Below are positions 3,259 through 19,416 of a stretch of DNA of 49,292 nt, one piece after another (positions within the stretch are counted from its first letter, which is position 1; every line of letters begins with the position of its first letter). The notes under the pieces are model-generated. The model was not told the origin of the DNA. It saw only the letters and a program-made list of their open reading frames with translations, and searched no databases. The stretch is taken from IMG/VR virus record IMGVR_UViG_3300029288_004479; one strand, 5' to 3'. This stretch comes from a virus (Duplodnaviria; Heunggongvirae; Uroviricota; Caudoviricetes). The position numbers and the translations under genes were made by a program.

Positions 3259-3769
3259 ACATTCACGTTTTGGTGAGTTTAGGGTTATGAGCGAACAAGA
3301 GGATAACTGTCCTAACAATCTTTCAGATCAATTCAATGGTTATTCGGCATTGTTTTTTATTGGTGTCATACTTACCTTAGTATATTTATTCATATATTGT
3401 ATAACGTCTTCAGTAATAAATGTTAATCCCCTCATCCAAATACCCATAGCGATTGGAATAACCTGTACTTGTGGTGGAGCAGCGATAATTTGTCAAGTGA
3501 TACGGATATTATTACCCTATGGTTTCGGTGTCAAAATATATGTTGTCGAAGGTGAATCAAGCACAACACATTATTCAGAATGGTATTATCAGTATACAGG
3601 AGATAATGGTGCAGACGCACAAAAAATTGCTGATTATATTAGGGTATTGAGCAATCTGGCGCAGAGACTAAATAGGGAAAAACTCACAATGGGAAATAAG
3701 AATCAGGAAAGAGATACACGGTATCAGGATGTTATGGCCCAAGTAAATGAACGGTTGGGAGAGCATTAA
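3248..3769 (+). CDS. Two-TM membrane protein with coiled coil, family A (copy 3); start moved to ATG 3248
   Basis: Begins MATEHSRFGEFRVMSE. The first ~60 nt are nearly identical to those of 2743. Confidence 0.8.
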   Translation: MATEHSRFGEFRVMSEQEDNCPNNLSDQFNGYSALFFIGVILTLVYLFIYCITSSVINVNPLIQIPIAIGITCTCGGAAIICQVIRILLPYGFGVKIYVVEGESSTTHYSEWYYQYTGDNGADAQKIADYIRVLSNLAQRLNREKLTMGNKNQERDTRYQDVMAQVNERLGEH

Positions 3770-4079: not shown

Positions 4080-4775
4080 ATGGATTACAAAAAAATATTA
4101 TTATGTTTAATTACGATCTCTTTGATATTTGTGTGTGGATGCACTACTTACGATCAACAGGGATCAAGTCAGGTCAGTCCTAAATCAGATGTAGTTGTGG
4201 TAAAAGAGGCAACAATAGATTCATCGTCTATAGTTGTAGAAGCAGAGGATTGGAACCAATACATAAATAAAAACGATAGTTTTTCAATAGTGTATCCAAA
4301 AGACTGGAAAATAACAACAGAGTTAGCAGATAATATGTTTGGGGAGGAAAAAGATACTTATGGTTATCTTTACTACGACGACGTTGTACATGTAACTGCA
4401 CCAAATGAGAAATCGTATATTATACTCTTTGGAAAAAACATTAGTGAGTTTGTGGAATATATTGACAATGTAAAAATCGACGAGGTTTCTTATTCAACAC
4501 TTATACTTGCAATAATGGATTCCGAAGATGAAAATAGAACTATTACAAAGGTTGGAATAGATAAGAACGATTATAAAGTAAATGATATTGTTGCGAAAAA
4601 GATTCCATTCAATATGACTTCAAATGGGATGAATTATCAAAGTGAAGCATGGATTTTAATGAATGAAAAAAGTATATATGTCGAAATGTATTACACTGAT
4701 AATACAAACGACAATGCAGAGTCAGATCTGAAAACAGCTAAAAAAATAATGTATTCATTTAAGATTACGGAGTAA
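4080..4775 (+). CDS. PsbP-like lipoprotein
   Basis: Signal peptide with lipobox-like FVCGC; FSIVYPKDWKI motif typical of PsbP-fold archaeal lipoproteins. ATG 4080 preferred over GTG 4071. Confidence 0.6.
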   Translation: MDYKKILLCLITISLIFVCGCTTYDQQGSSQVSPKSDVVVVKEATIDSSSIVVEAEDWNQYINKNDSFSIVYPKDWKITTELADNMFGEEKDTYGYLYYDDVVHVTAPNEKSYIILFGKNISEFVEYIDNVKIDEVSYSTLILAIMDSEDENRTITKVGIDKNDYKVNDIVAKKIPFNMTSNGMNYQSEAWILMNEKSIYVEMYYTDNTNDNAESDLKTAKKIMYSFKITE

Positions 4776-12529: not shown

Positions 12530-12576
12530 TTTATATATGTGTGTGCTGTTTATAACTATTGTAGGTTTGGAGGAGG
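12530..12576 (+). promoter_or_regulatory. Strong promoter TTTATATA-N17-ACTATT plus SD GGAGGAGG (12569-12576)
   Basis: Consensus TATA box, window-wide ACTATT motif and an extended SD. Confidence 0.75.
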
Positions 12577-12590
12577 TTTCACAGAAACAC

Positions 12591-12905
12591 ATGCCAGTAG
12601 ATGCAACAGCAATCATCGGACTTCTGGTCGGATTTTTAGTCGTCGGCGTAATCGGTAAGTCTCGTAACGGGCTTAAAAAGAGAAAAGAAGCCTATTTGAG
12701 TCCCGGAATTTACGTGGGCGACCAAATGGTGCAGGCAGCTAACCTGTCCTCAGAAAACACACTGTACAGCTCACAACAGAGCATTATCGCGACGTTCCAG
12801 CTCGGTGTCACGTTATGTAAGATCATAGTTATCGTCTCTATCGCCAGTATCGTCTTCGTATTGCTCCAGAAAACCGGACTTATTCCGCGCTTCGGAGAGC
12901 AGTAA
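12591..12905 (+). CDS. Probable major capsid/coat protein (two hydrophobic helices); 104 aa unspliced, 87 aa after removing the predicted intron
   Basis: Strong promoter and SD, marked C-ending codon bias unlike the rest of the window, and a 3' hairpin. The helix-loop-helix hydrophobic layout resembles spindle-shaped archaeal virus coat proteins (inference). Confidence 0.68.
   Translation: MPVDATAIIGLLVGFLVVGVIGKSRNGLKKRKEAYLSPGIYVGDQMVQAANLSSENTLYSSQQSIIATFQLGVTLCKIIVIVSIASIVFVLLQKTGLIPRFGEQ
12658..12708 (+). other. Predicted 51-nt bulge-helix-bulge (tRNA-type) intron within the coat-protein mRNA
   Basis: Outer helix CGTAA(12647-51)/TTACG(12710-14); central 4 bp TCGG(12652-55)/CCGG(12703-06); 3-nt bulges TAA(12656-58) and AAT(12707-09); inner stems G-CTCG/TGAG-C and GGGCTT/AAGCCT. 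The splice is in frame and gives VIG-I-YVG. Confidence 0.85.
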
Positions 12906-12925
12906 GACTTACTCTGATGATAAGA

Positions 12926-12971
12926 GGGGGTGGTTCGTAAGAACCCCCCAATAAATTTTAAACCGTTTTTT
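12926..12971 (+). terminator. GC-rich 3' hairpin with GTAA tetraloop, followed by T tracts
   Basis: GGGG-T-GGTTC/GAACC-CCCC stem (12927-12949); TTTTTT at ~12966-12971. Confidence 0.65.
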
Positions 12972-13026
12972 AAACACTTACTAAAAATATATATCTGTAC
13001 TAAACATAATCTATTATGATTAATTA

Positions 13027-13866
13027 ATGTCAGTTATTACAGAATGCGCTTATTGCGGGGGAACTCTCTCAATAAAAAAATGTAAATATACACGCACCAC
13101 TCATCATTTTTGCAATAGAGACCATTATGGGAAATGGAGAAGTCAACACCAAATTGGAGAAAATAATCCCAATTATAAAGAAAAAATAAAACGCGTTTGT
13201 AAAAACTGTAATGTACAGTATGAATCATTTCCAAGTAACGTTCGTAATAAACAAGGATTTTGCTCATTAAAGTGCTATCATGAATGGAGGAGAAAACAAG
13301 CTAAACTGTGTGTTATAAAGTGTGTAGTTTGCGGGAAAGAAAAACAATCAAAACCAAGCAGATTAAAACGCGGAATAGATAAATGTTGCAGCAAACGATG
13401 TGAAAGTATATTAAAATCCCAAACACGACTTAGAGAAAATAACCCCAATTGGAAGAATGGCGCATCTCAAGAAACCTATTGCCCGAAATTCAACAGGCCG
13501 TTTAGGGAAGGCGTTAGGGAATTTTGGGGGCATATGTGTGGGTTGTGCGAAAAGAGACAAGAAGATAATATAATTATAAGAAGAGGCGAACCATTAGTAG
13601 CAAAACTGTCTGTCCACCACGTGAATTATAATAAAAGTGCCTGTTGTGATGGTCAGGAAACACATTGGATGTTTGCCCCAGTCTGTCACGAATGTCACGG
13701 AAAAACAAACGGGAAGAGGGACGATTGGAAAAAGATCTTATCGGATAAAATAATTAAAGAATATCAGGGGAAATCATATCTCACAGAAACAGAATATAAA
13801 CAATACTTTGCAAAGAAAAAACTGAACCCGGAATATACAATATTTGATCTGTTAACCACACAATAA
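13027..13866 (+). CDS. HNH endonuclease with N-terminal Zn-finger repeats (homing-endonuclease-like)
   Basis: Three CxxC...FCxxxC/H-like repeats, then CGLC...LSVHHVNYNK...FAPVCHECHGKTN. Confidence 0.85.
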   Translation: MSVITECAYCGGTLSIKKCKYTRTTHHFCNRDHYGKWRSQHQIGENNPNYKEKIKRVCKNCNVQYESFPSNVRNKQGFCSLKCYHEWRRKQAKLCVIKCVVCGKEKQSKPSRLKRGIDKCCSKRCESILKSQTRLRENNPNWKNGASQETYCPKFNRPFREGVREFWGHMCGLCEKRQEDNIIIRRGEPLVAKLSVHHVNYNKSACCDGQETHWMFAPVCHECHGKTNGKRDDWKKILSDKIIKEYQGKSYLTETEYKQYFAKKKLNPEYTIFDLLTTQ

Positions 13867-13954
13867 TTTTTTAACAACCAAAATGCGTGTAAATATATAG
13901 ATCTCTCTTTTTAATGCACAAAACCCGATAAAATTGTGCATATACAGGAAAATA

Positions 13955-14001
13955 CTTAAATACTGCTACTACTATTAACACTATTGTAGGTTTGGAGGAG
14001 G
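13955..14001 (+). promoter_or_regulatory. Promoter CTTAAATA-N17-ACTATT plus a leader identical to the coat-gene leader
   Basis: ACTATTGTAGGTTTGGAGGAGGT is identical at 12555 and 13980. Confidence 0.7.
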
Positions 14002-14197
14002 TCAACAAAGACAATGCCAGTAGATGCCAGAGCACAGTATAATCAAGGACAGGTCACGTTGTATAAAGTAGATGTACTAAGTAGCGTCTACTTGTGCATA
14101 CAATCCAGCCTACACTAGATTCGTGCAAAGCATCCAAAAAAACGCAACTTGGTATATAGTATCAAGTTGTGGCATAGTCTTTTTTCGATACTCCTAC
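13985..14197 (+). ncRNA. Candidate structured ncRNA (~210 nt) mimicking the coat-gene 5' end; contains a 34-codon ORF (14014-14118)
   Basis: Stems: AAAGAC-ATGCCA/TGGCAT-GTCTTT, GATGC/GCATC, GCAC/GTGC, TTGTAT/ATACAA, AAGTAGATG/CGTCTACTT, GCAACTTGGTAT/GTATCAAGTTGT and AGGAG/CTCCT. Confidence 0.55.
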
Positions 14198-14254
14198 TAT
14201 AATGAACAAACGGGGAGAAAAATACCAACAAACAGGTGAGGTGCATATTCGATT

Positions 14255-14947
14255 ATGGCAGATGACAGTATAACGGCGAGGATAAAAAATCTCCTCCCCT
14301 CAAAAAGAACAAATGAAAAACAACAATATGAACCAAAAGTTCCACAATTACCTGATTATGCAGAACCAGTGACGGTAAATGACGGTCTTTTTGAAGACGA
14401 TCCAATAGGTGGGGAAGGGCCGTTTCCAAAAATCGAAGACAAATCTGGTAATGTAATTGATCAATCGCTCATGCGTCAACCGTCGTATGAGGAGAACCAG
14501 ATTCAGTTGATGAACGATATAGCTTCGGATGAAAGTCTGGGAGTATTAACATATTACATCCAAAACTTATCACAACTGGGTAACAAAGCACAAGCTCGGT
14601 TAGTAACAAGAGCAACAGCATTCCAGAGTAAAAACCAAGTCTTCTCAAACATCGAAAATCAACGCGATTATTTAATGGCGCAAGATGATTTTGAATATGC
14701 CAAAATATTAAGCAAAGCTGATTTTACCTCGTTTGATATGAACGCGGATTATTATGTTGCAGAAGCAATCATGGAAGCTCAGTTTAATATCAGGTTACGC
14801 CGTTCAAAGCGTGCACTTAACTTATTGCAATTGAATACACAGAGAAGCGAATCCGGGCCAACTGGCGGTTATCACCAGCAACAAGAGAAACAAGGTATCT
14901 TACAAAAACTATCATTTTTAGGTGGTAACAGAGGCGGAGGATACTAA
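14255..14947 (+). CDS. Hypothetical protein, 230 aa
   Basis: RBS AGGTGAGG; long ORF with window-typical codon use. Confidence 0.8.
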   Translation: MADDSITARIKNLLPSKRTNEKQQYEPKVPQLPDYAEPVTVNDGLFEDDPIGGEGPFPKIEDKSGNVIDQSLMRQPSYEENQIQLMNDIASDESLGVLTYYIQNLSQLGNKAQARLVTRATAFQSKNQVFSNIENQRDYLMAQDDFEYAKILSKADFTSFDMNADYYVAEAIMEAQFNIRLRRSKRALNLLQLNTQRSESGPTGGYHQQQEKQGILQKLSFLGGNRGGGY

Positions 14948-14951
14948 TAAC

Positions 14952-15794
14952 ATGGCGGTTTTAGGCGGAACAACCTCATTACCAACTTTCGCATTATATG
15001 CATTAGGCGGGTACGCACTTATTGCATCAATAGTAGCATTTCAGTTCATAATGGCGATGAGAAATACGCCATTAATGAAAGCTATAAATGAAGCACTAAA
15101 TGGAGAAAAACATCTTGTATTTGTGCATTACGCATCGGGACAAGCGAAAGTAGTTGTACCAAGATATGTAGAACCAATAGAGACTGATGGAAAGGTTTCC
15201 CCCTATTGGATTATCGACGGCACATACCGGTTTAAGGATGCAACCGGTGAGAAATGGGAATCAATAGGATCATTAAAAGTATTACACTATTCAGCAAGAA
15301 CAACGCAAGCGATGAGTGTAGATCAAGCAATAGCTATTGACCAGTTTAATGATATCCTTGCAAGTCACGGGTATTCAACAAAAGGCTTCCTTAAAGAAGT
15401 ATTCTATATGCTCGGGGAATCCGCAAAAGGAGAGGAATCTGAACGAGCCGCTTGGCAGAGATTAGCCAATGGAAATACAAGCGAACACACCCTTAACAAG
15501 ATCAACGAGGTATTACAGTTCGTTAAAAAACATCCGGAAGTAAAATATGTAATGTTAAAAACCGGTGCATTTACTTATAAAACATCAGTATCAGTAGTTG
15601 ATCAGTTAATCGGTCAGGGAGTAACAAATTTATCTCATACAATATCGTTTGTTGAAGACAGGACTCGAAGAAGATTACAAGATAGATTTGAAAACATGAT
15701 GAAATATGCAATGTTAGCAATTATGATCATGATACCGGCAGCGATTGCAGGAGTAATCTTCTTAGTAGGTACAGGAATGGTGAAAATGGGATGA
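14952..15794 (+). CDS. Membrane protein with N- and C-terminal TMs (280 aa); start moved to ATG 14952
   Basis: Hydrophobic ends flanking a soluble domain; GGAGG upstream. Confidence 0.8.
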   Translation: MAVLGGTTSLPTFALYALGGYALIASIVAFQFIMAMRNTPLMKAINEALNGEKHLVFVHYASGQAKVVVPRYVEPIETDGKVSPYWIIDGTYRFKDATGEKWESIGSLKVLHYSARTTQAMSVDQAIAIDQFNDILASHGYSTKGFLKEVFYMLGESAKGEESERAAWQRLANGNTSEHTLNKINEVLQFVKKHPEVKYVMLKTGAFTYKTSVSVVDQLIGQGVTNLSHTISFVEDRTRRRLQDRFENMMKYAMLAIMIMIPAAIAGVIFLVGTGMVKMG

Positions 15795-15795
15795 T
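15690..15795 (+). repeat. ~105-bp direct repeat, copy 1 (encodes MKYAMLA.MIMIPAAIAGVIFLVGTG.VK.G plus the next ATG)
   Basis: Near-identical to 16036-16141. Confidence 0.9.
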
Positions 15796-15949
15796 AATTG
15801 AAATACCAGACACGATTACTCTTCCGATACTAACATTTTCTGTATTGGGGGTTCTTGCTATTGTAGGTTTTATGTATATATTCAGGTGGTTTGTATTGAG
15901 ATCAAGAACAACGAACAGACATCAGAAAGATAGGAAAGATCCACAATGA
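15791..15949 (+). CDS. Single-TM microprotein, 52 aa (not in the ORF track)
   Basis: ATGA overlaps at both ends. MIIEIPDTITLPILTFSVLGVLAIVGFMYIFRWFVLRSRTTNRHQKDRKDPQ. Confidence 0.65.
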   Translation: MIIEIPDTITLPILTFSVLGVLAIVGFMYIFRWFVLRSRTTNRHQKDRKDPQ

Positions 15950-16140
15950 CATGGGAACAAGGAACCGATCAAACCGTCGCCAATCAATATCAGATCGCCA
16001 TCGAAACATCAGACGTATCAAGGGTTGAGGAAATGGAAAACGCAATGAAATATGCGATGTTGGCCCTTATGATCATGATACCGGCAGCGATTGCAGGAGT
16101 TATCTTCTTAGTAGGTACGGGCACGGTGAAGATAGGATGA
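15946..16140 (+). CDS. Microprotein carrying a duplicate of the C-terminal TM of 14952-15794
   Basis: The last ~33 aa are nearly identical to that C-terminus; coupled by ATGA overlaps. Confidence 0.65.
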   Translation: MTWEQGTDQTVANQYQIAIETSDVSRVEEMENAMKYAMLALMIMIPAAIAGVIFLVGTGTVKIG

Positions 16141-16141
16141 T
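16036..16141 (+). repeat. ~105-bp direct repeat, copy 2
   Basis: Near-identical to 15690-15795. Confidence 0.9.
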
Positions 16142-16301
16142 CGATCAACTCCTTAACACGGTGATTGTAATACCGTGGTGGAAATTTATGATAATCATAG
16201 TATTACTGATTATTGTGATGTTTTACGCCGTATGGATATTATGGGTAAATAAACGACAGAACGATAAAATCAAAAAACTTGAAATGGCAGCGAAAAAATG
16301 A
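16137..16301 (+). CDS. Single-TM microprotein, 54 aa (not in the ORF track)
   Basis: ATGA overlaps at both ends. MIDQLLNTVIVIPWWKFMIIIVLLIIVMFYAVWILWVNKRQNDKIKKLEMAAKK. Confidence 0.65.
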   Translation: MIDQLLNTVIVIPWWKFMIIIVLLIIVMFYAVWILWVNKRQNDKIKKLEMAAKK

Positions 16302-16573
16302 CTAGTATATTCTATCGTATAGAAGAAAACCCGTTATTATTATTAGGCTTAATTATATGGGTGGTGTGGAGCACAGGATATTTAGTCCAGACTCTTACGA
16401 TGACATACGCTGGCGAGGCAAAAGATTTTTGTGGACTTATATTAGGATTGGTTGCACTGCTTGGAATAATGATACCATATGCAGTATTGGGCCATTCATT
16501 GGGCAGGGTGAAGAGTTCAACAGAAGAAGAAACAATAATTGAGGAAGTTAAGGAAAAAGAGGAGGAAAAATGA
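16298..16573 (+). CDS. Two-TM protein with an acidic tail
   Basis: Hydropathy pattern; translationally coupled. Confidence 0.7.
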   Translation: MTSIFYRIEENPLLLLGLIIWVVWSTGYLVQTLTMTYAGEAKDFCGLILGLVALLGIMIPYAVLGHSLGRVKSSTEEETIIEEVKEKEEEK

Positions 16574-17046
16574 ATTATTATTTAGCAATTCCAACGGGTT
16601 TATTGGGAGTTATAATATATGCAGTAGTTGTGGCAGGTATAATTGCAGCATTAGGCATTTACAAATGGAAAAAGGAAAGAAAAAATGGAACAACTCTAAC
16701 AAAAACAGAATTAATCCACCAGTTCAATGAACTTATACGCCGTTCAACCACAATTTTTGTATCTTTTGTAGGATTAATGCTCATATTATTAATGGCAAAT
16801 GCGGGCGGGATTATTATTGAATCTGGTCATCCAGAGTGGGGGGTATGGATGGCAGTAGGATTAATAGTAGCAGCAATATTCACATTTATTTATTTACCTG
16901 TTATGGTATGTGTCGAATGGGGTATGTTCTTCGTGAATGTTATAACCCTCGCATGTGATAATTATGTTAAATCGAATGCACCATTGGAGCATTACACACG
17001 ATCAAAAATATGCCACGTAAAAACAGAAGAAGAGGATGATTGGTAA
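16570..17046 (+). CDS. Multi-TM membrane protein
   Basis: Three to four hydrophobic segments; GGAGG RBS. Confidence 0.75.
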   Translation: MNYYLAIPTGLLGVIIYAVVVAGIIAALGIYKWKKERKNGTTLTKTELIHQFNELIRRSTTIFVSFVGLMLILLMANAGGIIIESGHPEWGVWMAVGLIVAAIFTFIYLPVMVCVEWGMFFVNVITLACDNYVKSNAPLEHYTRSKICHVKTEEEDDW

Positions 17047-17241
17047 ATGCCGCCGCCAGATGCAAACGAAGGATCGGGATTAGGTATCGATTGGTTCAAG
17101 ATAACCGTCCAATATCTCGTACCGGGAATGCTGATACTTGCCATACTGGGAGTCATCATATACCAATACGGATCAACCGATACGGGCGGGAACAGCATAT
17201 TCTATGATGTTGGAAGTATAATGTTCAACTTCGGTGGTTAA
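17047..17241 (+). CDS. Single-TM microprotein, 64 aa
   Basis: Adjacent to the upstream stop; central TM. Confidence 0.6.
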   Translation: MPPPDANEGSGLGIDWFKITVQYLVPGMLILAILGVIIYQYGSTDTGGNSIFYDVGSIMFNFGG

Positions 17242-17267
17242 TGCCGTAAAAACATGAGGTAACGGAA

Positions 17268-17591
17268 ATGTATGAGGAGGTTCTGGATTATCTCGAACAA
17301 AAAGAAGGGCAACTCTCGAAAACAATTTTTATTATTTTCGGAGTAATGATAGCATCGCTGCTGTTCTCACTTTATATTAATAATGAGTTTGCCACAGTAG
17401 TATCAGCAATACAAGATCCAGAAGGAACCAAACCAGATATCGTAGAAGATCCAGCATATATATTATTTGTAATTTGTTTGATAACTGAATTAATAGCAGG
17501 CGGGGTATGGTTTGGTATTACAATTATTATACGGGGTATACGGATATTGGAACGTAACGCTCATGGAACGCCGATACAGTGGTGGGGGTAA
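17268..17591 (+). CDS. Two-TM protein, paralog family B (copy 1)
   Basis: MYEEVLDYLEQKE N-terminus, two TMs and a GIR.LE.N C-terminal motif. Confidence 0.75.
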   Translation: MYEEVLDYLEQKEGQLSKTIFIIFGVMIASLLFSLYINNEFATVVSAIQDPEGTKPDIVEDPAYILFVICLITELIAGGVWFGITIIIRGIRILERNAHGTPIQWWG

Positions 17592-17596
17592 TAGGA

Positions 17597-17953
17597 ATGT
17601 ATGAAGATTTAATGGATGATTTAGATCAAAAAGATCATTTCTTGAATAGGTATATTACAGTGCTTGCATTAATCACAATACCGCTTGTTATTACACTGTT
17701 TGGTATTTCTTATACACAAGAACATTTACCCTCATTTGATATTAATTCAATTCTCCAACATAAACTTGAAAAGAATGTATCGGCCTATGAAGAACCATTT
17801 AAAACAATATATTATACCGCCATAGTTATGTTATGTGCGGTTTTTGTTCTTTTATGTATTATACTCGGGATATCTACAAGTATACTCATAACACGATGGG
17901 GAATAAGAAAAATTCAGAGAAATATGAATAGACCAATCCAACAGTATGGATAA
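17597..17953 (+). CDS. Two-TM protein, family B (copy 2); start moved to ATG 17597
   Basis: MYEDLMDDLDQKD N-terminus; WGIRKIQRN...PIQQ parallels copy 1. Confidence 0.75.
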   Translation: MYEDLMDDLDQKDHFLNRYITVLALITIPLVITLFGISYTQEHLPSFDINSILQHKLEKNVSAYEEPFKTIYYTAIVMLCAVFVLLCIILGISTSILITRWGIRKIQRNMNRPIQQYG

Positions 17954-17998
17954 GGAGAACCCAAATGCCAGAATATACCAAAAACGGAGATAAATAAA

Positions 17999-18310
17999 AT
18001 GAAATATACAGCAGAAACCGCTATAAAAACGTATGAGGAGAAGTTGAATAAACTCGAAACACAATATTTTCAACTCTCATGGGGATTTATATTAGGAGCA
18101 ATAGCCATTGTAACATATCAATTAACAATATCCGGGATACACCCGTTTAGTGCAATAATATCAAAAGATGTGCCATCAGAACTCGTCACCGCACTCACGG
18201 GGATAGGGTTAGTCCTGATGGTAATTGGGATATTTATGTTGGGTATGGCATTAATGTCGAGATTAAACCTCGATTATTTAAAAGAACTGCAATCTAACGT
18301 GAAGGAGTGA
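17999..18310 (+). CDS. Two-TM protein, family B-like (copy 3)
   Basis: YEEKLNKLETQ followed by two TMs. Confidence 0.7.
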   Translation: MKYTAETAIKTYEEKLNKLETQYFQLSWGFILGAIAIVTYQLTISGIHPFSAIISKDVPSELVTALTGIGLVLMVIGIFMLGMALMSRLNLDYLKELQSNVKE

Positions 18311-18314
18311 AAAA

Positions 18315-18938
18315 ATGGCAGAACCCGGTGGCAACGCATTTTCAGCAGGGGGAGTTAATCCCGCAGCAGCGAGCAGAGAAGAGTTACGCCAGCAACCAAT
18401 TGATATTAAAAATATGTTGCCCGTCTATATTTTTATGGGTATGGAATATGCCAGTTTTATTGAAAGCAATTTACCGTTCGGGCAAACTCCTCAACGACGG
18501 CACATCGTAGATTTCCACAGAACGTTCTGGCATATCTACAATTATGTCAAGAACTCGGTCGATATGGACAAACTCAATCCCGATCTTGTCGATAAAATTG
18601 ACGATTGGTTTGAACTATTTAAAACCCAGAACCACCGCACGGATTTAATTGAGGCAGGAGTCCAGTTATTCCTTGCGCTGGTAAAAAACATGCAGGAGTG
18701 GGGTATTGGGCAACTGTTTGAGAAAGGTATTGATCCGCCATTCCAGACAGAAGATGTAGATGACCTTGAAATGTTAATTGAGGATTTAGAAGAAGAAGTT
18801 GTTGCAGACAATCTCGAAGATTATGAAAAACAAATCGAAGAACAAAATGCAGATGTTCCTGTGCAAGAAATAATGCCATTACAGGAAGGAGAACAAGATT
18901 ATGCAACAGAGGTTAATCAGAATGGAGATAATAACTAA
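18315..18938 (+). CDS. Hypothetical protein with an acidic C-terminal tail, 207 aa
   Basis: RBS GGAGTGA; long ORF. Confidence 0.8.
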   Translation: MAEPGGNAFSAGGVNPAAASREELRQQPIDIKNMLPVYIFMGMEYASFIESNLPFGQTPQRRHIVDFHRTFWHIYNYVKNSVDMDKLNPDLVDKIDDWFELFKTQNHRTDLIEAGVQLFLALVKNMQEWGIGQLFEKGIDPPFQTEDVDDLEMLIEDLEEEVVADNLEDYEKQIEEQNADVPVQEIMPLQEGEQDYATEVNQNGDNN

Positions 18939-19189
18939 TGACAGACACAACAGGTAGGGTAAAAGTAAGCACATTAATTGTAGCAACGATTCCAGCATAC
19001 ATTATAATAGCATCAGCATTAACGTGGTTTTCTGCTGGAAAAATAGATCCGATCTCAATATTGGGAATTCATGTGGCTATATTCTTCGGACTATATTTTA
19101 CAATTGGTGTTGGAATTAATCTCGGGAAACGGGTAGAAAAAGGCGACGACCGATTTATTGTTAAATGTAATGAGGTAAAAAAATGTTAG
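18938..19189 (+). CDS. Two-TM microprotein
   Basis: Hydropathy pattern; TAATG coupling. Confidence 0.7.
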   Translation: MTDTTGRVKVSTLIVATIPAYIIIASALTWFSAGKIDPISILGIHVAIFFGLYFTIGVGINLGKRVEKGDDRFIVKCNEVKKC

Positions 19190-19416
19190 ATTCGGGCAAA
19201 GAAATAAATGTATTTGCTGGGATGGGGATAGGTTTTGCCATTATTTGTTTGATAATAAAAATACTTTATTATCCGGCAGAACCAGTCTCACTCTCAATCG
19301 TTATGACGGCAATGATAGTATCAATCGGACTTGCAGCATATTTTGCCGGATTGTCTCTTGGGTATCATCTTGGATATGGTAAACGAGATAAAGAATGTGA
19401 TACCAGCAATGAGTGA
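19183..19416 (+). CDS. Two-TM microprotein (paralog-like to 18938)
   Basis: Ends G..LG..LG.GK like its neighbour. Confidence 0.7.
   Translation: MLDSGKEINVFAGMGIGFAIICLIIKILYYPAEPVSLSIVMTAMIVSIGLAAYFAGLSLGYHLGYGKRDKECDTSNE

Follow-up and report, generated by a model that had tools for sequence, protein, structure and literature searches.

Predicted end-to-end RNA pairing on the last unit of a coat-like gene array, and its likely retention after decay of the gene, in an uncultured archaeal virus

The stretch of DNA analysed here (the window, 49,292 nucleotides in length) belongs to a large uncultured archaeal virus and carries a short coat-like gene, an endonuclease gene, a small structured element and a tightly packed operon, in that order (Table 1). 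A tRNA-Ala(TGC) is found at 1657-1730 (ARAGORN and Rfam). The coat-like gene has about 96 homologues, mostly of 84-100 aa, and the window copy carries a 17-codon insert, which is a BHB intron and is recovered by a BHB test at a cost of 0.0 kcal/mol. Moreover, a related contig (run X7) replaces window positions 12657-12717 by eight other letters, and thus an intron-free coat allele exists as DNA. In a relative, protein P0014 has a 33-residue in-frame insert at the same site, which suggests a second intron there. Several relatives (L004:2701-3816, L008:945-2042, L047:577-1683 and L054:6332-7426) have a gene for a T4 Rnl1-type RNA ligase immediately before the coat array, which could have a bearing on the joining of introns or on the repair of tRNA. 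The coat-like protein itself, of about 87 aa, is modelled as a hydrophobic two-helix hairpin (helices 5-33 and 40-78, pLDDT 86.6), in which it resembles the major capsid proteins of spindle-shaped viruses, and its nearest Pfam-bearing Atlas clusters are VP1_VP3 (0.85) and His1_capsid (0.84). It gave no significant HMM, PDB or fold match, the fold and PDB searches returning generic helical hairpins, and the name 'coat' is best taken as a lead.

The single coat-like gene of the window stands for a larger arrangement. The source contig (L003; 216,809 bases, JGI) holds a tandem array of identical coat-like copies, each with its own promoter, and comparison of L003:9800-10950 with window 12549-12972 shows that identical copies with the intron surround an N gap, at least two of them full and one partial; the promoter differs per copy, and the window collapses the array to one copy. 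Across the coat arrays, copies are homogenised and their number varies. Longer paralogues of 270-290 aa also occur in the array (L010:817-1650, L011:2745-3575, L018:2944-3810 and L021:3421-4236); these have a long, often Gly-rich insert between the two helices, with a Gly_rich_2 match in L054/L055, and are likely decorated minor capsid proteins. In L046 (2448-4925), the homologues of 230 aa and 290 aa are succeeded by four more paralogues of the coat-like gene, with 41-49% identity. Homologues of the endonuclease gene lie near the coat array in L004/5, L018, L019, L047 and L049. In L008, the right end of a TnpB element is duplicated (3495-3620 and 4262-4470) and flanks the first coat copy, and the 3' remains of a NUMOD3/HNH gene follow this duplication, before the remnant unit described below.

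Table 1. Features of the coat-like array end and the element in the window
Feature	Position	Strand	Remarks
Intact coat-like gene and leader (ATG 12591, 51-nt BHB intron)	12555..12905	+	present in the source contig as at least 2-3 identical copies in tandem
Zn-finger/HNH-like endonuclease gene	13027..13866	+	separates the intact copies from the remnant
GTGCATATA motif preceding the TATA box, 3' arm of palindrome 13914-13941	13936..13944	+	common to many relatives' coat promoters
Predicted archaeal TATA box of the last-slot promoter	13955..13962	+	the ATG follows some 60 nt further on, as it does in relatives
5' leader of coat type, including the SD GGAGGAGG (13994-14001) and an A-rich spacer	13980..14013	+	leader as at 12555-12590 and in relatives' coat genes
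34-codon stub ORF	14014..14118	+	coat start and probable coat 3'-half remains after internal deletion
Long irregular stem arm P2	14023..14134	+	from the decayed coding interior; z -3.4
Leader-complementary 11-mer TCCAGCCTACA of the earlier note	14104..14114	+	weak, partly paired inside P2
12-bp hairpin P3	14144..14170	+	takes the position of the terminator-like hairpin of the coat 3' UTR; intact last units also have hairpins ahead of the anti-leader
3' anti-leader, pairing with AUG, spacer, SD and 5' end	14171..14203	+	holds U6 tract 14180-14185; -28.5 kcal/mol, z -4.7
Conserved 230-aa gene that opens a tightly packed operon (to about 19416)	14255..14947	+	putative target of the cis leader

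An earlier note on this DNA, made from the letters alone, had described the element as a structured RNA that copies the leader and coding start of the coat gene (12555-12604) behind a separate TATA-N17-ACTATT promoter. Both parts of this description hold. The 23-nt leader start at 12555 recurs at 13980, and the coding sequence that begins at 12591 has its first 14 bases repeated as well, so that the whole repeat spans 13980-14027. The window contains just two occurrences of the 12-mer leader core, where 0.28 are expected. The promoter pattern precedes both copies, as TTTATATA at 12530-12537 and as CTTAAATA before the element. Some 10-20 bases upstream of the TATA box lies a GTG(C/T)ATATA-like motif, sometimes palindromic (window 13914-13944), and GTG(C/T)ATA(T/C)A or TGCATATA is found at the same place in L004, L008, L010, L011, L046, L047 and L049. 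This motif, which is absent before the upstream coat copies of the window's own genome, could be an activator site.

Comparison with relatives gives the element its place in the array. About 50 loci were collected with the 230-aa gene next to the element as the anchor, and no relatives were found in viral_contigs, genome_contigs or INPHARED phages; of three pattern matches in genome_contigs, the two that were read, L051 and L052, were due to chance. Most relatives have an intact coat gene of 86-91 aa in the slot directly before the anchor (L004/5, L012, L014, L016, L021, L023-25, L028-42, L044, L046, L047 and L049); in the closest relative, W7Dzyqdq, the 87-aa gene in the last slot was counted as coat by its length only. 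In the window, L008/9 and L010/11/54/56, the slot holds a promoter, leader and ATG followed by a stub of 34, 30 or 43 codons, with slot, promoter and leader all as in the intact coat copies. The tree of the neighbour protein groups the window with W7Dzyqdq and nests L008 and L010 among intact loci, and a single clade of remnants is rejected (AU p 1e-50). As the remnants do not form one clade, the last coat ORF would have decayed at least twice, on the assumption that the neighbour, which could itself recombine, tracks the slot.

The stub of the window, whose count of 34 codons in the earlier note proved right, looks weakly coat-derived. Its interior had been thought unrelated to the coat gene, a view that does not fit its colinear alignment, in the frame of the ATG, with the 3' half of the coat CDS (p 0.023, 0.013, 0.017 and 0.14 in four scoring schemes; HMM E 0.029), which is consistent with an internal deletion. 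The L010 stub is a frameshifted 5' part of the coat gene (HMM E 7e-5), so that the remnants retain different parts of the coat CDS. Another contig of run X7 spans 13768-14324 with 32 substitutions and 5 gaps, at about 94% identity. Overall, it is very likely that the element is the decayed last unit of a tandem coat-like array, with an inherited pairing.

The region 13975-14205 is predicted to fold on the + strand at -71.6 kcal/mol (z -5.37), and none of 200 shuffled sequences folded as well; the - strand of the element folds less well (z -3.6). The fold has more than seven helices, in keeping with the earlier count of at least seven stems. In its closing stem the anti-leader is paired with the 5' end, part of the SD, the spacer and the AUG, with AAAGAC/GUCUUU and AUGCC/GGCAU stems over the AUG, whose bases have an unpaired probability of 0.00-0.07. 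The minimum free energy structure pairs CUCC (14191-14194) with the first GGAG (13994-13997) and leaves 13998-14000 about 60% unpaired, and therefore the SD is hidden only in part. The earlier proposal that the RNA folds back to hide its own SD and AUG is thus borne out for the AUG and holds in part for the SD. Rfam covariance models gave no match near the gathering threshold within the element. A BHB-processed or circular RNA was considered and rejected, the best BHB in the element costing +11.9 kcal/mol against 0.0 for the coat intron control. A 21-codon ORF on the - strand (window 14110-14175), with a GGAG upstream, mirrors the anti-leader, and no promoter is visible for it.

The closing pairing is found well beyond the window. 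After the last hairpin of the last unit comes a stretch rich in pyrimidines that is complementary to the SD and spacer of the same unit, and the mean energy of the leader/trailer duplex is -22.0 kcal/mol in 12 intact last units and -20.9 in 3 remnants, as compared with -11.0 in 10 upstream copies (Mann-Whitney U test, p 1.7e-4); against shuffled trailers, z is -2.05, -2.71 and -0.2, respectively (p 1.3e-3), p-values that are optimistic given that the trailer windows were set manually and that the loci include several close relatives. L047 provides an internal control, since it has two copies with the same SD, spacer and CDS, of which only the last carries the anti-leader match (-25.4 against -8.5 kcal/mol). 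Within loci, four of five contrasts between last and upstream units favour the last unit, L022 being reversed. Further, cognate leader/trailer pairs beat swapped ones (p 0.004; five loci with 1-2-base offsets), and the window ranks first of 15 both ways. RNAalifold on seven intact units returns the same long-range stem, with 16 leader/trailer pairs and a few two-sided changes, and a unit's own RBS is predicted to be paired to its trailer in 11 of 14 last units; in L049, L022, L012 and L025 the pairing is weak or missing (z above -1.1). On these predictions, the end-to-end pairing is a conserved cis element of the last coat transcription unit, present also around intact coat ORFs. What survives of the structured RNA first described is therefore a pairing, conserved in relatives, that hides the AUG and part of the SD. 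The suggestion of an undescribed class of non-coding RNA finds no support in the interior, as the interiors of the remnants differ in length and sequence and the conserved part is a cis element that intact units share.

The surroundings of the element point to what such a pairing could do. The genes at 14255-19416 are separated by gaps of -10 to +45, and in 13 of the 14 loci covered by a pattern scan no TATA match lies closer than 110 nt to the downstream ATG. With no recognisable TATA of its own, the downstream operon is probably served by the last-slot promoter, as far as the sequence tells. The two ends of the RNA are predicted to behave differently according to where transcription stops: a form that ends at 14183, within the U tract, leaves the SD 0.72 unpaired with the AUG closed, and read-through forms close both AUG and SD (SD 0.10-0.29 unpaired). 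Archaeal termination uses U tracts bound by aCPSF1/FttA (PMC8716108, PMC11616081), and internal terminators set uneven expression and stoichiometry in operons (PMC10450193). Predicted masking of the U tract is higher in last than in upstream units (0.63 against 0.37, p 0.048), and is thus only weakly specific to last units. Blocking the leader in the predictions brought no consistent change at the downstream RBS, and so no translational switch was seen there.

Given these observations, it appears fairly probable that the element is a closed-loop leader that acts in cis and silences its own ribosome site on the read-through mRNA. In intact last units, transcripts that stop at or before the U tract would have a free SD, and coat protein would be made from them. 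Transcripts that read through into the downstream operon would fold back, with the coat ribosome site hidden and the 5' end paired; such a long mRNA would be silent for coat and probably protected, and its U tract might be hidden from aCPSF1/FttA, the terminator nuclease. A last ORF with spare coat copies ahead of it in the array would be dispensable and could shrink, with promoter, leader and anti-leader kept. In the window, the leftover would have tightened into a fully folded untranslated leader of about 220 nt with the AUG paired even in the short form, and the job of this leader in cis would be to carry transcription into the downstream operon and set the level of the operon.

A bolder extension, which we put forward only tentatively, is that pairing between leader and terminator tract constitutes a translation-sensing attenuator in these archaeal viruses. 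Ribosomes on the last coat leader would keep the U tract open and transcription would stop, and an idle leader would mask the U tract and let the polymerase read into the morphogenesis operon. Several lineages would then have independently made their last coat gene into a non-coding, constitutively closed form of the RNA switch.

The simplest alternative is a neutral pseudogene, in which the promoter alone matters, the 5'-3' pairing is inherited from an intact ancestor and the folded interior is a by-product. The presence of the pairing around intact ORFs agrees with such an origin, as do the interiors of the remnants, which vary in length and sequence and cannot be aligned with one another, and the L010 remnant, whose interior is short and poorly folded (z -1.05). 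Against neutrality, the window anti-leader is the strongest of 25 units and fits its own diverged leader best (-26.0 kcal/mol, as compared with -20.1 for the coat leader), and the interiors of two independent remnants, the window and L008, fold with z of -4.0 and -2.9 despite coding sequences that are nearly unrecognisable. Folding beyond chance in both would be explained by protection of an untranslated stretch from termination or decay, and we consider the neutral account unlikely.

The earlier note had proposed, among other readings, a regulator or decoy of coat translation that acts in trans. Spelled out, a discrete RNA of 200-220 nt would end in the U tract and bind coat leaders or titrate a leader-binding protein, with an origin like that of OxyS. 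The element's own promoter and U6 tract could indeed yield a discrete RNA, the short form is predicted to free the 5' leader, and there is precedent for a small RNA replacing its parent gene (PMC8825220). The complementarity of 14104-14114 to the shared leader, on which the proposal drew, is there, and pairing with one bulge is possible; it is weak, with a p of 0.026 against shuffles for a site chosen post hoc, and is not shared by L008, L010 and L011. Moreover, the full form is predicted to bind coat mRNA at -6.0 kcal/mol as compared with -5.3 +/- 1.9 for unrelated targets (23 window segments), and the short form at -13.7 against -10.7 +/- 3.5, no better than controls. Given also that the anti-leader has a preference for its own leader, to which it is bound in cis, and that the downstream operon would be left without a promoter, action in trans is quite unlikely, a decoy for a leader-binding protein being conceivable, and the proposal is not upheld.

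It might also be asked whether the remnant is a scar of endonuclease activity, in which an HNH enzyme cuts the coat gene and neighbouring copies survive by intron gain or by deletion of the site. All intact copies here have the intron and the last copy lacks that region, and in the window, L008 and L010 the remnant comes after an endonuclease gene or what is left of one. However, in L004/L005 and L047 the coat genes next to related endonucleases are intact and free of the intron, the L011 remnant has no endonuclease, and the conserved pairing would be left unexplained. As the main account this is distinctly improbable; it is compatible with, and does not exclude, a leader acting in cis.

A mRNA for a small peptide, silenced by a long-distance 5'-3' interaction in the manner of type I toxins, would share the RNA architecture of the aapA and hok mRNAs (PMC6733600), and the element does combine a strong SD with a 34-codon ORF. 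Its peptide, however, was not found in the protein collection searched, and conservation at the protein level, which the earlier note had named as an observation that would count against a structured RNA, was looked for among the remnants and is absent: the stub peptides of 34, 30 and 43 aa share only their first residues, lie in different frames and have no membrane helix (best 19-residue hydropathy 0.94-1.40, against 2.73 for coat). With no TATA-like sequence visible on the - strand at 14204-14255 either, this reading is very improbable. That the pairing is a DNA-level inverted repeat flanking the last unit, used in recombination or protein binding, would suit homogenised arrays of variable copy number, yet it is extremely improbable given that the pairing depends on G-U pairs, bulges and mismatches and that the + strand folds better than the - strand.

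What emerges, on predicted structures, is a real and conserved cis RNA structure in a family of uncultured viruses, with a mechanism of a known kind and apparently undescribed; the literature covered, which was incomplete, contained no description of capsid units of archaeal viruses paired in this way. Control by cis RNA elements is little described in archaeal viruses, and end-to-end pairing on the last capsid-gene copy could be a route to making much coat and little downstream protein from one promoter. The units would also constitute a natural test case for whether RNA pairing can block termination by aCPSF1/FttA. Moreover, the ORF, having apparently decayed more than once and being available in both intact and degenerate versions, could provide snapshots of a gene becoming a structured leader.

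Several known systems share parts of this design. In the aapA3 mRNA of Helicobacter pylori and in hok, the SD is bound by a distant anti-SD located towards the 3' end; the long form is then translationally inert, and a 3'-shorter form has its SD free (PMC6733600). The element is like these type I toxin mRNAs in that a distant 3' anti-SD is predicted, with conservation, to pair with its own SD. It is unlike them in that it encodes no toxin-like peptide, no antisense RNA was found for it, and the gene that carries it, in an archaeal virus, probably encodes a capsid protein; within the array it is confined to the last copy, where it outlives the ORF. As with the internal archaeal terminators (PMC10450193, PMC8716108, PMC11616081), its U-rich tract follows a highly expressed first gene and precedes an operon that lacks a promoter, an arrangement suited to uneven stoichiometry. 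The element differs from the aCPSF1/FttA terminators in that its U tract lies within sequence complementary to its own leader, a structure that does not appear in the passages of those three papers that were searched. OxyS is a small RNA that replaced its parent peroxidase gene, arose from an mRNA fragment and acts in trans (PMC8825220). The element resembles it as a protein gene decayed in place into a structured RNA with the parent promoter kept, and differs in that the evidence favours action in cis and the conserved part is the 5'-3' closing stem. Finally, long 5' UTRs are common in methanogen mRNAs and are linked to transcript stability (PMC5378194). The element likewise would put a leader of more than 150 nt before a first gene, and unlike those UTRs it appears to be built from a decayed gene copy, with its two ends paired together.
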